This document shows, one piece after another, positions 5,832 to 35,781 of a DNA stretch of 64,000 nt. This stretch comes from an uncultured Amphritea sp. (GTDB lineage: Bacteria > Pseudomonadota > Gammaproteobacteria > Pseudomonadales > Balneatricaceae). Below the pieces are notes generated by a model. The model was not told where the DNA came from and ran no database searches. It saw nothing but the letters and a program-made list of their open reading frames with translations. Where the stretch lies: the NCBI GenBank assembly GCA_963669425.2, contig CAXXNC010000002.1:2074618-2138617 (forward strand), given 5' to 3'. The position numbers were made by a program, and so were the translations under genes. Positions within the stretch are counted from its first letter, which is position 1; each line of letters begins with the position of its first letter.

Positions 5832-6836
5832 ATGGCTGTATTGGATGACCTGCTTGAAAAGATCGACCAGCAAGAATTCGAACAACTGAGTGCCGAGGTG
5901 CGTGCGGTTATACCCCAGCATCAGCACTGGCTCAACAAGCTAAATATCGCTCTGCTCACAAAAACACCAGTCAGTTCCGAAGACGCCTGGTGCTGCTGCT
6001 CTCACAGCCACTGCCAGTTTGGTCAGTGGATCGAACAGGTACTGAAGAAAAGCGTGTTTCAGCATAATTTCTTCTATCACCTGGATGATCTGCATCGTGA
6101 GTTTCATGGTCTGGCCAATCAACTGATCATCAACCTCAATGAACAGCAACCTTTCGACCTTGCAGTCTATGAGCAGCTTCTGAATATTCAGCACAGTTTC
6201 TCTGCGCAGCTACTCCATCTGCTCGAGTTCAGTGCGGTAAGTAAGCACCAGTTTGATATTACTACCGGCCTGATGAACCGGCGCAGCGTGGATTCTGTAC
6301 TGGCATACGAAAAGTACCGCCTGCACCGAAATCTCCAGTTCCGCTGTTTTATTGCGCTGCTGGATATTGATCACTTCAAACTAATCAACGATCAGTATGG
6401 TCATGATATCGGGGATCAGGTACTGAATCAGATCGCAACAGTGCTGCAATCAATGACCCGGCAGAGCGATGTCATCGCCCGTTATGGTGGCGAGGAATTT
6501 CTGTTTGTGCTGCCGGAGATGAAGCTGGAAGAAGCACTGGAAGGCATCGAACGGGTGCGCCGGCGACTGGCAGAAACTCCTTTGCGAATTAATGATCTTC
6601 AGATCAATGTCACTGCATCCTTTGGTGTCACAGAGTTATGCCGTGAATGCGATGTCGAGAAATCACTGAAGCGAGCCGACGTGGCGCTCTATCAGTCAAA
6701 ACAAGAAGGCCGTAACCGCACTGCTTACATCGATATCAATGAATTTGATGAGCAGGAACGCCAGATCGGCATCGGCCCGATCAATGATGAGTTTACCTAC
6801 CTGATGTCGCAGTACAGCCGTCTGGTAAACGCTTAA
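5832..6836 (+). CDS. Diguanylate cyclase with N-terminal CZB domain (DgcZ-like)
   Basis: HQHWL, CQFGQW and LHREFH CZB motifs; RQSD I-site and GGEEF active site. Confidence 0.88.
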   Translation: MAVLDDLLEKIDQQEFEQLSAEVRAVIPQHQHWLNKLNIALLTKTPVSSEDAWCCCSHSHCQFGQWIEQVLKKSVFQHNFFYHLDDLHREFHGLANQLIINLNEQQPFDLAVYEQLLNIQHSFSAQLLHLLEFSAVSKHQFDITTGLMNRRSVDSVLAYEKYRLHRNLQFRCFIALLDIDHFKLINDQYGHDIGDQVLNQIATVLQSMTRQSDVIARYGGEEFLFVLPEMKLEEALEGIERVRRRLAETPLRINDLQINVTASFGVTELCRECDVEKSLKRADVALYQSKQEGRNRTAYIDINEFDEQERQIGIGPINDEFTYLMSQYSRLVNA

Positions 6837-7922: not shown

Positions 7923-10900
7923 CTACACCATAGAGCTATGAATACAGTGCTGCAATTCAGTGCTGACGGCTTGTAAGTGAGTCAGCTCTTTCTCTATCTC
8001 TGATCGGGTTCCCGAGGGCCGTAACTCGACCAACTTCTTGCCCAACTGATGAATCTGTTGATGCAGATTGAGTATCTGGACCATCGCATCATTAGCCAAC
8101 CGATTCTTAACTGTAGAATTCTGTAGCCAGAAACCAAACCGGCAATCAGTATGCTCAAGCTCCGGGGGAGTTGGCCGGTTACCACGCATATAATCCCGCA
8201 TCGCCTGTACCCAGGCACGGTGTTCCACTGCTGCAAACAGAAAAGACAGATCATCACGATTGATCCGAGTCTGCTGGGACCAGCTTGCCGGTGGAGTCCA
8301 GTCCTGAATCCAGCCCGGAAGTTCTTTAGCAGGCATAGGTCTGGCAATGGCATATCCTTGCGCCCGGGTACAACCCAGCTGGAGCAGGATCTGCCCCTGT
8401 TTCTCATCTTCCACACCTTCGGCAATAATGTGACGACGGAACGCAGAAGACATACCGATCACACCATCCAGAATCGCCAGATCATCAGCGTCTTCAAGCA
8501 TATCCCGAACAAAGGAGCGATCAATTTTCATGGTTTTAGCCGGCAGATGCTTGAGATAGTTCAGCGACGAATAGCCGGTCCCGAAATCATCCAGCGCAAA
8601 GCTGATACCCATATCCTCACACTGACGCATAACCTGGGATACCCGGGTAATATCCTGCAGGGCACTGGTTTCAAGAATTTCCAACTCAATCAGGGAGTGG
8701 TCAAGATCCGGATAGACGTCCAGCATCGCCTTAAGGCTGGCGACAAAGTCCGGCGTTAACATCTGTTGAGCACTGATATTGATACTGACCGGTATGCAGC
8801 AACCATCTTGAAGCCACTGATTCACCTGGGCCAGCGCGTCACTGATAACCCAGTTACCCAATTCAACAGCCAGAGGATGATCTTCTACAACTGGCAAAAA
8901 CTCTGCTGGAGATAACAAACCACGCTGTGGATGATTCCAGCGAATCAGCGCTTCAGCACCCAGAATTTCACCGCTGTGCATATCCACTTTCGGCTGGTAA
9001 TAGAGTTCAAACTCCTCACCCTGCAGCGCCTTCTGAACACTCTGGATAATATCCCGCTGACCGATAAGGCTGTTTTCATGCTCGGTATCAAACAGGTGAT
9101 AGCCGTTTTTACCCGCCATCTTGGCCTGATACATCGCCTGATCGGCTTGCCGGATCAACTGATCGGCCTCGACTTTGTCCTCCTGTGGACAGAAGGTCAC
9201 CCCCATACTGGCCGAAACCGTCAGCACCTTATCATCAACAGATATTGGCTGAGTAATCTCCCGTTGAATCCGGTTCAACATCGGCAGTGCTGCGGTCTTA
9301 TCCTTAAGATCAATCAGGACCGCAACAAATTCATCACCGCCCAGACGGGCAATGGTATCCCCTTCACGCAGCACTTCCCGGAAACGATGGGCAATAGTGA
9401 CAAGTAACTGATCCCCGACATCGTGACCAAACTGATCGTTAATCTCTTTAAAGCCGTCCAGATCGATATAGACCACCGCCAGCATCTGCTCACGACGCTG
9501 TTGCTGACTGATAGCCTGATGCAGACGATCTGCCAGTAGACCCCGGTTGGGCAACCCTGTGAGACGGTCATGGTAAGCGGCATGTTCCAGCTGATTCTGT
9601 TGTTCTTTCAGCACTGTGACATCGGCACACACTCCGATCCACTTATAAGGTTTACCCGTTTCATCCAACAGGGGCAGAGCCTGATCACTCCAGTAACGGT
9701 AATGACCATCTTTATGGCGCATCCGATACTGATAGCTGATCGGTGAAGTACTTGAGCGATGCAGCTCAACGGCATCACTTAACTGATCGACATCTTCAGG
9801 ATGGATCAGATCGAGCCAGGCTTCTATATTGCTGCTGATTTCACCTTTTTCAAAACCCAGTATGCCGTCGATATCACCAAACCAACTCAGGCCATTTGTC
9901 GCGACATCCCACTCATAGATCAGATCGTACGCAACTTTACCGGCCAGTTTGAAACGCTGTTCACTTTCCCGCAGAGCCTGCTCTGTTTCCTTATGCGCTG
10001 TAATATCAACGGAAATACCGCACAGCGCATAAATAGATCCATCTTCCCTGCGCAATGGCAGTTTTGTCGCTTTATAGATAGCCGATTTACCAGTCTGTCT
10101 GACCGTGCCGCGCTCCTCTTCTCGGAGAACTTCTCCCTGATCCAGAACCCGTCTGTCATTCGCCTGAATTTCAGCGGATGTCTCGGCATCAAAAAAGTCA
10201 TAATCGGTGTGACCGATGATTTTATCCTGGCCAACCTGCCAGAGATCGCATACCGGCTGATTCGCGAACAAATAACGGCCATCCATATCCTTCAGGAAGA
10301 TATAGGCATCAACATTATCCAGAATGGTTTGCAGTTTAGTTTCATTCTCAGCCAGCAGCTCCTGAGCCCGAACAATGTCAGTAATATCATGGGCGATCAC
10401 CAGAATCCGGGACCGCCCCTGCAGATCCTTATAAGGCGTTTTGGTAGATTTAAAGTGTCTTATCTCTCCGGTATTACCGTCGGTACTGTCCTCGAACACC
10501 ACCTCCGTCTCACCGCGGGCCATAATATCAAGCACATTGTTGCGCATCGCATCTGCCAGTTCAGCAGGCACCCCGAAGTCAGCATCATCTTTACCCACCA
10601 TCTGTTCAGGTGTGGTGTCGTAAAGCCTTGCCACAGTCTCATTACAAAGCAGGAACTTGCCCCGCTCATCTTTCAGGACCATCACATCCGGCAGGTTATT
10701 GATCAGAGACTGCATCAACTCCTGCTGCTGACCGAACTGTTTCTGCAACTGTTTCTTACTCTGTAGCAGTTTCAGGGTCACACCACAAAGAGCAACAACG
10801 AGCATGGTAAGCAAAGCCGTCAGATAGCCTGTCGGGCCTGATAAAACCGATTGCGAATCAGCCGCACTGGGCAGAGAGAAAGAACTGAGAAAAACGATCA

Positions 10901-33733: not shown

Positions 33734-34258
33734 ATGCGCCGCTTATCCCTGTTTTTCTCAGTTATTCTTCTGAATCTGACACTGATCAGCCCTACTCATG
33801 CAGCAACGGAAGCTGAAATTGCCGAAGCCATCAGACTGCTCAGCGAAGGCAAGTCCGGCCTCAGCGAAAGTTACAGCGATACCGAAGTAAAGCAGATGCT
33901 ACGTGACGAAGGCTATGGCTCTGTCAGAATTGTGGAAAGCGATCAGATCCGCTTTAAAGCCAATGGCAGCGTATTTGTACTCTACATTCACGAAGATGGT
34001 GATATGCATCTGTACTATGGCGCAACCGGCTATGCGCTGGATTTTGAGGATATGAACGAGTGGAACCGTACCAGCCGTCTGTCCCGCGCCTACATCGATG
34101 AAGAGGGCGATATCGCCCTGGAAACCGACCTGCTGGCCAATGCCGGCCTGAATCAGGATATGGTAACGGAAACTGTTAAAGTGTTTGTCCAGACCTCTGT
34201 GCCACGCTTTGTGAATTTCGCCCAGGAGCGTGAAGGTCAGCCCGAGTCAGCCGAGTAA
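33734..34258 (+). CDS. Exported YbjN-domain-like protein
   Basis: Signal peptide; MNEWN...RLSRAYID.EGD..LE.D....G motif. Confidence 0.7.
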   Translation: MRRLSLFFSVILLNLTLISPTHAATEAEIAEAIRLLSEGKSGLSESYSDTEVKQMLRDEGYGSVRIVESDQIRFKANGSVFVLYIHEDGDMHLYYGATGYALDFEDMNEWNRTSRLSRAYIDEEGDIALETDLLANAGLNQDMVTETVKVFVQTSVPRFVNFAQEREGQPESAE

Positions 34259-35641
34259 TCAGGCTGCACGCTTTATTTCAGAACCGGGCTCTGACCGCTC
34301 CAGCGGATACGCCCGGTTCTGACCCACTGCTGCACTTTGACGGGACTTGGAACGAAGCATCCGCACAACAGTGAATGCAAGCAGCCCGAAGAGCAGCAAC
34401 GCAACCAGACCCAGAACAACAGCGTAATCGCTTTCAAGCAATGAAGACTGCCCCTCTTTCCCGGAAGCACCTCCTGTAACCGGCACATCAACGTCTTTCA
34501 CGCCCAGACCAGTCTTCGAGTCTGATACAGCCGAAACAGATCCCGGTGCCGCCAGATTCTCAGCCCCAGGCTCCTGAACAGAGGCCTTAGCAACTTCTGA
34601 AGCCTGCTCCCGTGATCTATCATCACCAGCAGAACCACCAGATTCAGAGCCTGAACCTCCTGCAGCTGCCCCCGAACCTCCGCTACCGGAAGCACCTGCA
34701 AGCCCTTCACCGCCAGAATACCCTCCGGAAGAACCGCCTGAAGAACCGCCTGAACCTGATCCACCTGAACCTGATCCACCTGAACCCGACCCACCTGAAC
34801 CCGACCCACCTGAACCTGTTCCACCTGAACCTGTTCCACCTGAGCCTGATCCTCCTGTGCCTGATCCACCTGTGCCTGATCCACCTGTGCCTGATCCACC
34901 TGAGCCTGATCCACCTGAGCCTGATCCACCTGTGCCTGATCCACCTGTGCCTGATCCACCTGTGCCTGACCCACCTGTGCCAGATCCACCTGCGCCTGAC
35001 CCACCTGCGCCTGACCCACCTGTGCCAGATCCACCTGAACCACTACCACCCGAAGAGCCGCCTGAACCTGATCCACCTGTACCCGATCCACCTGAACCAC
35101 TACCACCCGAAGAGCCGCCTGAACCTGATCCACCTGAGCCTGATCCACCTGCGCCTGACCCACCTGTGCCAGATCCACCTGCGCCTGACCCACCTGCGCC
35201 TGACCCACCTGTGCCTGACCCACCTGTGCCTGACCCACCTGTGCCAGATCCACCTGCGCCTGACCCACCTGTGCCAGATCCATCTGAACCACTGCCACCT
35301 GAGGAGCCGCCTGAACCACTACCACCTGAAGAGCCGCCTGAACCACTACCACCTGAAGAGCCGCCTGAACCACTACCACCTGAAGAGCCGCCTGAACCAC
35401 TACCACCTGAAGAGCCACCTGAACCACTGCCACCTAAGGAGCTGCCATCTCCGGATGAACCGCCGGAACCTGTGGGGAAGACCGCTGCAATATCACCGAC
35501 AGAACCCCCGACAGATGAGCCCAAAGACGAGAAAGCACCCACCACCGAGGCAGACACCAGCGCACCCGCCAGGGCGTACTCGACGGTAGTCAGGCCTCTC
35601 TGTTTTCTTCGGTGCGATATCATTGTCTTTTTCCATGACAA
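34259..35641 (-). CDS. Flp/TadE prepilin-like N-terminus fused to a Gly/Ser-rich repeat and a C-terminal TM
   Basis: RRKQRG|LTTVEYALAGALV class III signal, (GGSG[T/A/S])n and GSGGSSGGS repeats, then YAVVLGLVALLLFGLLAFTVV-RMLRSK. The start may be 35623. Confidence 0.75.
   Translation of the reverse strand: MSWKKTMISHRRKQRGLTTVEYALAGALVSASVVGAFSSLGSSVGGSVGDIAAVFPTGSGGSSGDGSSLGGSGSGGSSGGSGSGGSSGGSGSGGSSGGSGSGGSSGGSGSGGSSGGSGSDGSGTGGSGAGGSGTGGSGTGGSGTGGSGAGGSGAGGSGTGGSGAGGSGSGGSGSGGSSGGSGSGGSGTGGSGSGGSSGGSGSGGSGTGGSGAGGSGAGGSGTGGSGTGGSGTGGSGTGGSGSGGSGSGGSGTGGSGTGGSGTGGSGSGGTGSGGTGSGGSGSGGSGSGGSGSGGSGSGGSSGGSSGGYSGGEGLAGASGSGGSGAAAGGSGSESGGSAGDDRSREQASEVAKASVQEPGAENLAAPGSVSAVSDSKTGLGVKDVDVPVTGGASGKEGQSSLLESDYAVVLGLVALLLFGLLAFTVVRMLRSKSRQSAAVGQNRAYPLERSEPGSEIKRAA
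34728..35440. repeat. Coding tandem repeats, 15-bp and 27-bp units
   Basis: CCTGATCCACCTG(T/C/A)G 15-mers and CCACCTGAAGAGCCGCCTGAACCACTA 27-mers. Confidence 0.92.
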
Positions 35642-35736
35642 CAGACTGTAAATACAGCCTAGTCACGCAGAGCCCGTCAGGCAAAATTACAGGCCTGAAG
35701 AAGGTGAAAATTCCTAATACTGCCAATCACAGACAC

Positions 35737-35760
35737 AAAAAAACCGCCTGCGGCGGTTTC
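35737..35760 (-). terminator. Intrinsic terminator after ycgN
   Basis: AAAAAAACCGCC-TGC-GGCGGTTT. Confidence 0.7.
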
Positions 35761-35781
35761 TGTATAGATTCTGGTACAAAC

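Follow-up and report, generated by a model that had tools for sequence, protein, structure and literature searches.

A Flp-like pilin with a long Gly/Ser spacer and a second transmembrane helix in an uncultured Amphritea sp.

The long Flp gene and its product

This study deals with a single gene, located in a 64,000-nucleotide stretch of DNA (referred to as the window) from an uncultured Amphritea sp. (assembly GCA_963669425.2, contig CAXXNC010000002.1, here called C2). The gene occupies C2:2108876-2110240. Its product was found to be an accessory, fast-evolving paralogue of Flp, the subunit of the Tad (type IVc) pilus, fused to a disordered spacer and a C-terminal transmembrane (TM) helix. 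It will be called the long Flp, and the proteins that share its design the long forms. The features of the gene and of its surroundings are collected in Table 1.

A preliminary description, made from the DNA letters of the window, had read this region as a Flp-type prepilin joined to a Gly/Ser tether and a second membrane anchor. The open reading frame (ORF) is real and lies on the minus strand, with 460 codons (34259..35641) when counted from a TTG, and each of the listed elements (leader, hydrophobic helix, repeats, polar region, TM helix and tail) was recovered. The start had to be revised. ATG 35623 is most likely the initiation codon instead of the upstream in-frame TTG 35641, since it gives a leader of 10 residues, as in all ten members of the family. 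Residues are numbered from this ATG.

Table 1. Features of the long Flp gene and neighbouring elements (window positions; aa, amino acids)
Feature	Position	Strand	Remarks
Whole coding sequence of the long Flp	34259..35623	-	454 aa; stop codon at 34259..34261; monocistronic
Class III (prepilin-type) leader MISHRRKQRG	35594..35623	-	residues 1-10; net charge +4; last residue Gly-1, invariant
Flp module LTTVEYALAGALVSASVVGAFSSLG...	35474..35593	-	residues 11-50; 40-residue hydrophobic helix, predicted as a single alpha-helix
Gly/Ser(/Thr/Ala) repeat leash	34625..35473	-	residues 51-333; 283 aa
Polar, acidic, non-repetitive disordered stretch	34427..34624	-	residues 334-399; 66 aa, before the second TM helix
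C-terminal TM helix YAVVLGLVALLLFGLLAFTVV	34364..34426	-	residues 400-420; 21 residues
Basic stop-transfer RMLRSKSR and cytoplasmic tail	34262..34363	-	34 aa
YbjN-like gene	33734..34258		immediate neighbour, convergent
Intrinsic terminator of ycgN	35739..35761	-	upstream of the long Flp gene
GGDEF-domain gene	6252-6719	+	
GGDEF-domain gene	9105-9578	-	

The mature N-terminus would read RKQRG/LTTVEYALAGALV... (the slash marks the processing site), that is G/LTTVEYAL with Glu at +5 and Tyr at +6. The leash is composed of 158 Gly, 89 Ser, 17 Thr and 12 Ala among its 283 aa, and Gly plus Ser make up 64% of the whole protein. As assembled, the DNA of the leash consists of in-frame tandem repeats, one of 15 nucleotides in 36 copies (84% match) and one of 27 nucleotides in 6 copies (94% match). 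Together with the polar stretch it forms a spacer of 349 residues between the two helices. The hydropathy of the C-terminal TM helix peaks at 2.91 on the Kyte-Doolittle scale (19-residue window).

The structure was predicted with AlphaFold2 on a shallow alignment of five sequences. Helices were placed at residues 9-48, with a predicted local distance difference test (pLDDT) score of 80-88, and at residues 393-437 (pLDDT about 90). Residues 53-388 were returned without structure (pLDDT about 35), i.e. as disordered. The model is thus of two confidently predicted helices joined by about 340 residues of predicted disorder. According to the positive-inside rule both termini would be cytoplasmic and the leash periplasmic.

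Relation to Flp pilins

The first 52 residues of the long Flp are 53% identical to the Flp of the tad locus of the same genome (E = 1.8e-10 in a search of this one genome). When the N-terminus was searched with phmmer against 1.84 billion representative proteins, 129 matches were obtained at E <= 1e-3. Most of them are 50-90 aa long, and those retrieved carry the Flp motif G/xTxxEY. In an alignment of 13 sequences (9 long and 4 short forms) Gly-1, Val4, Glu5, Tyr6, Phe21, Leu24 and Gly25 were invariant. The long Flp displays the Gly-ending class III leader, the Glu5-Tyr6 pair and the hydrophobic helix expected of the family. The match to Flp is probably more than chance, and the identity to the genome's own Flp, the number of phmmer matches and the invariant motif residues bear out the earlier assignment of the N-terminus to the Flp family. 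In type IV pilins Glu5 plays a role in assembly and not in cleavage. An invariant charged Glu within a membrane helix makes the module unlike a generic membrane anchor, where none would be expected.

Word-indexed protein searches with residues 340-460 and with residues 1-58 gave no match. Exact-sequence look-ups in protein collections were empty for the long Flp and its orthologues, and two of the metagenome members are without a name.

Members of the family

A search for homologues of the same architecture, as the preliminary description had proposed, was successful. The long form was found in six other Amphritea/Aliamphritea genomes, of which three are complete, and is also represented by three metagenome proteins. 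In the genomes it occupies three chromosomal sites. The related genomes include Amphritea balenae JAMM 1525, Aliamphritea spongicola JCM 16668, Amphritea sp. HPY and an Amphritea metagenome-assembled genome (MAG). The locus of this genome is shared by G010 (397 aa) and by G007, whose contig stops within the repeat. A second locus carries the gene in G001 (337 aa), G002 (280 aa) and G003 (385 aa), and a third in G004 (299 aa). The metagenome proteins P0010, P0020 and L138 have 288, 279 and 214 aa, respectively. The assemblies of G001 to G004 are single-contig, and the records of G002 and G003 are labelled complete genomes.

The relatives have one design, which the metagenome proteins share: behind a basic leader of 10 aa and the Flp helix come Gly/Ser repeats over 100-300 aa, then a polar stretch, and at the end a TM helix capped by Trp or Phe with a basic tail. 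The leader is exactly 10 aa long and Gly-1, Glu5 and Tyr6 are invariant in 10/10 members. The charge of the leader ranges from 0 to +4, being positive in 8/9 and 0 in G003. The spacer varies from about 130 to 350 residues and never falls below about 130 aa. Its contour, at 0.36 nm per residue, extends over 47-126 nm across the family and amounts to about 125 nm here. The TM helix takes the same C-terminal position in every complete homologue and is followed by tails of 6-34 aa. The stretch that precedes it is not conserved in sequence, and tblastn with the C-terminal 121 aa against 40 relatives returned noise only. The C-terminus thus seems to be kept in architecture, not in sequence.

Such a design is rare. 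No further long form was detected in 300 genomes over 135 genera of the order. A scan of 185,579 species genomes with a leader plus mature-end pattern gave 40 confirmed loci, of which 0 outside Amphritea/Aliamphritea were long forms; the wide genome scans used one narrow peptide pattern, which long forms with other Flp motifs would escape. In a metagenome scan, one of the 85 motif-bearing ORFs was a long TM-anchored form, and the mature length was <=82 aa in 83 of them. The neighbours of P0020 were found to have no homologue in this genome, and the design is therefore not strictly confined to this lineage.

Sequence evolution of the long forms

The short Flps cluster tightly in one clade (support 100/99), with a mean identity of 77%. 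In contrast, the long forms are 47% identical among themselves and 46% identical to the short Flps, a sign that their Flp module is evolving far more rapidly than the structural one. The identity between long and short forms is distributed unevenly: it reaches 58% over mature residues 1-25, which Flp fibres bury, and 27% over residues 26-41, the exposed half. The ratio of non-synonymous to synonymous substitution rates (dN/dS) between G001 and G002 was 0.27 in the N-terminal part (50 codons) and 0.53 in the C-terminal part (103 codons). The leaders of the short tad-locus Flps have 17-21 aa and end in DEEG or EEEG, whereas those of the long forms resemble the TadE/TadF leaders of the same genome (KRQQG/, NRQSG/). 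The long form probably descends from Flp pilins.

The locus itself is labile. The nearest relative of this genome is G007, and the ycgN proteins of the two are 98% identical. When window 35624-35781 was compared with the corresponding region of G007 (L056), nucleotide identity was about 95% up to the ycgN stop and near-random directly after it; this collapse spans the intergenic region and the long Flp gene. The locus, including its upstream region, appears to be hypervariable or to have been replaced by recombination. Although the sequence turns over, the architecture persists in ten proteins.

The tad operon and its co-occurrence with the long form

The preliminary description had pointed out that no tad or pil gene is adjacent and had asked for a tad system elsewhere in the genome. 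Both points were settled by the searches. No tad homologue lies anywhere in the window, and a complete tad operon is present at C2:1036108-1047936, 1.06 Mb from the long Flp gene. It comprises flp, tadV, the gene of an AAA protein, rcpC, the rcpA secretin gene, tadG, tadE, tadF, tadZ, tadA, tadB and tadC. The Flp encoded there has 78 aa, and the TadV-type prepilin peptidase has 213 aa (Peptidase_A24, 59.5 bits).

The co-occurrence of the long form with Tad was evaluated in the genus, where a tad locus was called by the presence of RcpC and was found in 10 of the 24 genomes. The long form is present in seven of the ten Tad-positive congeners and in none of the 14 Tad-negative ones (Fisher P = 3.5e-4, kinship ignored). 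This distribution strengthens a link to Tad. The Flp module, the spacer and the second TM helix are kept together by selection in Tad-positive genomes.

Genomic surroundings

The long Flp gene stands among housekeeping genes, with the YbjN-like gene and ycgN as its immediate neighbours. The ycgN terminator lies upstream, and the gene is therefore its own transcription unit. Most congeners have ycgN immediately behind rpsA or the coiled-coil gene, which makes the long Flp gene an accessory insertion. The YbjN-like gene was considered as a partner and rejected, as its distribution in the genus does not track the long form. The stop codons of the two convergent genes abut with zero spacer (the YbjN-like gene ends at 34258 and the long Flp gene at 34259), and no terminator separates them at the junction (window 34256-34261). 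Their transcripts should therefore overlap.

Other pilin-like and Gly-rich genes

A second Tad-like locus was observed outside the window, at C1:1578500-1607024 (L118) and C2:1-16725 (L117, L007, L012). It contains a gene for a 110-aa pilin-like protein (KKQLG/QGMSEYIII), four unknown ORFs, and genes for RcpC, for a secretin and for a T2SSE ATPase whose N-terminus is FHA-like. Next comes an array of about nine ORFs, one with 301 aa and the others with 719-815 aa. Every ORF of the array begins with a TadE pseudopilin N-terminus, and these score equally. Two of them were scanned with Pfam and gave a pretoxin HINT domain; one also has a C-terminal AHH nuclease domain and is followed by an Imm11 immunity gene. 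Contigs C1 and C2 break inside this TadE-HINT array. The locus is a candidate Tad-dependent system for the delivery of polymorphic toxins, and no description of TadE-HINT-toxin fusions was found in the literature.

Another pilin-like leader, KWLRG/ASTSEFLPILAFVVIAAIVGFTALG, opens an ORF of about 440 aa outside the window (C1:~1051750-1053130, plus strand), in which a sequence resembling, by eye, a Hint domain is followed by a C-terminal domain of unassigned type. In a Polyangiaceae MAG (L110:3019-3870, plus strand) a Flp-like N-terminus, RQRG/LTTVEYVIL, is fused to about 280 aa, in which a Pro/Thr/Ser linker leads to a C-terminal domain that looks globular; a TM helix is absent. This protein may be a modular Flp pilin of another kind.

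A second long Gly-rich repeat protein of the genome is encoded by a frame of 485 codons at C2:2196898-2198350 (plus strand), about 58 kb past the end of the window. Behind a signal-peptide-like N-terminus it has about 290 residues of (GGGS)n and then (GGGN)n, and a non-repetitive C-terminal part. Two GGDEF-domain genes are located in the window (Table 1). The 4.39-Mb genome yielded 76 GGDEF matches, an unusually large repertoire for cyclic di-GMP (c-di-GMP).

Comparison with known systems

The Flp/Fap major pilins of the type IVc class (Flp1 of Aggregatibacter actinomycetemcomitans, PilA of Caulobacter, PF04964) share with the long Flp a Gly-ending leader, the xTxxEY motif, a single helix of about 40 residues and, in direct comparison, detectable homology, and the genome supplies the full tad operon together with a peptidase of the TadV type. 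Nevertheless, the long Flp differs from them in its size (454 vs 50-90 aa), its basic 10-aa leader (vs 17-21 aa with an acidic end), its 349-aa disordered spacer and C-terminal TM helix, its location 1.06 Mb from the tad operon, and its faster evolution.

The TadE/TadF pseudopilins (PF07811) have in common with the long Flp a short leader, basic and of the (K/R)xQxG type, that the same peptidase probably cleaves, and an accessory role in place of that of a bulk subunit, a role which the long form would also have. On the other hand, its mature N-terminus is VEY as in Flp and not VEF, it has no globular domain, and it ends in a TM helix. The PF07811 model gave no match to the long Flp N-terminus at E <= 10, while the TadE and TadF of the same genome score 54-59 bits; this rules out a TadE/TadF identity.

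Modular type IV pilins are known from Streptococcus sanguinis, in which PilB and PilC display a folded adhesin domain on a type IVa pilus (bioRxiv 10.1101/2021.01.27.428410; PMC8179133; PMC9934059). As in these proteins, a pilin module and an extra C-terminal module are united in one polypeptide. Unlike them, the long form grafts a disordered leash and a membrane anchor onto a type IVc Flp module. The resemblance is one of design and not of shared ancestry.

Proteins with sorting signals (LPXTG/sortase, PEP-CTERM/exosortase, GlyGly-CTERM/rhombosortase) also combine a low-complexity region with a C-terminal hydrophobic helix and basic residues. In contrast to them, the long form has no signature motif, its sequence before the TM helix is not conserved, and its cytoplasmic tail reaches 34 aa. 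No sorting-signal family of NCBIfam matched the long Flp, even at E <= 1. A known sorting-signal protein is ruled out by this result and by the differing residues before the TM helix.

Discussion

The preliminary description had suggested that a subunit anchored at both ends could tether, cap or brake a Tad pilus, could be released by an intramembrane protease, or could offer its spacer as a scaffold for glycosylation. Release by an intramembrane protease is weakened by the lack of conservation in the stretch before the TM helix. The reading that we prefer, and hold tentatively, is that the long Flp is processed by TadV, attaches to the Tad platform or the fibre base while a leash holds it at the inner membrane, and so tethers or terminates the fibre. 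In this model the protein would insert into the inner membrane in the shape of a hairpin, its two ends facing the cytoplasm and its leash the periplasm. The prepilin peptidase of the tad locus would then remove the 10-aa leader after Gly10, and the mature Flp helix would dock on the TadB/TadC platform. Through its conserved N-terminal half and Glu5 the helix could pack against the Flp subunits that form the base of the fibre as it grows. As the C-terminal anchor would stay in the membrane, the travel of the subunit would be limited by the leash, with a contour of about 125 nm. The fibre would be tied to the inner membrane or its extension stalled, and the protein, instead of serving as a building block, would be a leash or a chain terminator.

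This model is favoured by the homology to Flp, the basic 10-aa leader, the complete tad operon, the co-occurrence with Tad, the persistence of the architecture, the dN/dS values and the predicted order of helix, disordered spacer and helix. Two further observations speak for it. The invariance of Glu5 and Tyr6 and the retention of the core-packing half imply that the module is still pilin-like, whether in cleavage by TadV, in docking at the platform or in packing with Flp. Moreover, since the spacer has at least about 130 aa, its contour is in every member longer than the cell envelope is wide. A hairpin that resides in the membrane needs no long spacer, and the length kept here hints at a Flp end that travels away from its anchor.

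A more speculative extension, for which we see only a slight chance, is that the leashed pilin acts as a molecular ruler, a brake or a mechanical sensor of the Tad pilus. Once incorporated at the base of the fibre, the Gly/Ser chain would be an entropic spring, held taut between fibre and inner membrane. It might limit extension to about 50-125 nm, or relay tension to the membrane and possibly into c-di-GMP signalling.

Several results weigh against the leash model. No precedent for a pilin retained by a C-terminal TM helix was found in the literature, so the mechanism is an extrapolation; nor was a TM-anchored or Gly/Ser-extended Flp found described there. Pfam Flp_Fap (PF04964) gives 16 bits for the whole protein and 21.5 bits for the N-terminus alone, below the cut-off of 32.2 (the tad-locus Flp of the same genome, at 27.3 bits, also lies under it). 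No tad genes stood at any of the long-form homologue loci examined, and three Tad-positive congeners, one of them very fragmented, have no long form. No sigma-70-like promoter was found upstream of the gene. The fast evolution of the Flp module is odd as well, because the module would have to fit the same filament lattice.

This fast evolution suits a regulator better than a lattice subunit, and a membrane-resident decoy or regulator has to be considered. Its Flp module would bind TadV, the platform or a pilin-sensing partner in the inner membrane and never enter a fibre, and it would tune piliation or feed into signalling, possibly by c-di-GMP. The conserved processing and assembly residues and the co-occurrence with Tad fit this proposal equally. 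Genes related to c-di-GMP adjoin the long form in three of five contexts (GGDEF in G004, GGDEF-EAL in G003, PilZ beside P0020). However, with 73-84 GGDEF genes per genome this adjacency was downgraded from a significant association to a hint, and the long Flp gene of this window has no such neighbour. It is also hard to see in such a decoy why all members keep a spacer of 130-350 aa, which a membrane hairpin does not need. We regard this alternative as rather unlikely. Much the same can be said of an envelope protein unrelated to pili, a periplasmic Gly/Ser 'brush' or disordered spacer on two membrane helices, the first of which would merely have been recruited from a duplicated flp as signal-anchor. 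The Gly and Ser content of the protein, the occurrence of other long Gly-rich repeat ORFs in the genome (e.g. C2:2196898), the housekeeping surroundings and the hypervariability of the locus between close relatives agree with this view. The invariance of Gly-1, Glu5, Tyr6 and the 10-aa leader over ten diverged members does not, and neither does the confinement of the long form to Tad-positive genomes; the account therefore seems doubtful.

The C-terminal TM helix and basic tail could instead be a removable sorting signal, in which case the protein would be the precursor of a decorated pilin: the cleaved Flp with its Gly/Ser tail would polymerise, and a disordered, possibly glycosylated fringe would coat the pilus. 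There are Flp pilins (P0005, P0011, P0021, P0063, P0096) that combine a basic leader with a tail rich in Gly, Ser, Pro and Asn and that lack a second TM helix, the tad-locus Flp of this genome has a short Gly/Asp/Pro tail, and the layout of a TM helix followed by a basic cluster resembles, from established knowledge, the signals of sortases, exosortases and rhombosortases. The failure of NCBIfam to detect any sorting-signal family, the unconserved residues before the TM helix, and post-TM tails that at 6-34 aa are longer than typical sorting signals make this precursor distinctly unlikely. The five pilins just named have 100-130 aa, RKQRG-type leaders and tails that end in KKP or PRR; two further proteins, P0002 and P0066, are head-to-tail Flp-Flp fusions of 136-138 aa. 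The last explanation is that the ORF is non-functional or artefactual, either a frame generated by the repeat or a misassembly joining a small flp to an unrelated C-terminal segment. All six frames are indeed open across the repeat, short-read assemblies of relatives break in it (G007 certainly, G011 possibly), and the exact sequence is absent from the protein collection. Still, the N-terminus, the repeat and the C-terminal TM helix share one frame at three loci, in three complete genomes and in several others, and dN/dS is below 1. The earlier concern about an assembly artefact is answered by the recurrence of the fusion in complete genomes of other species, and we disfavour this explanation as highly improbable.

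How Tad pili start and stop, how they are held in the envelope and how they retract without a dedicated motor is poorly understood. If the protein is a generic envelope protein, Flp N-termini would be open to recruitment as anchors, and annotation by small-ORF or domain rules would mislabel such proteins. If the leash model is true, a Flp with a physical link to the inner membrane would offer a natural tool for studying these steps of the Tad pilus. Pilus length should then scale with the length of the leash, and the effect should be lost upon deletion of the C-terminal anchor. The idea of 'modular pilins' would thereby be extended from type IVa to type IVc.

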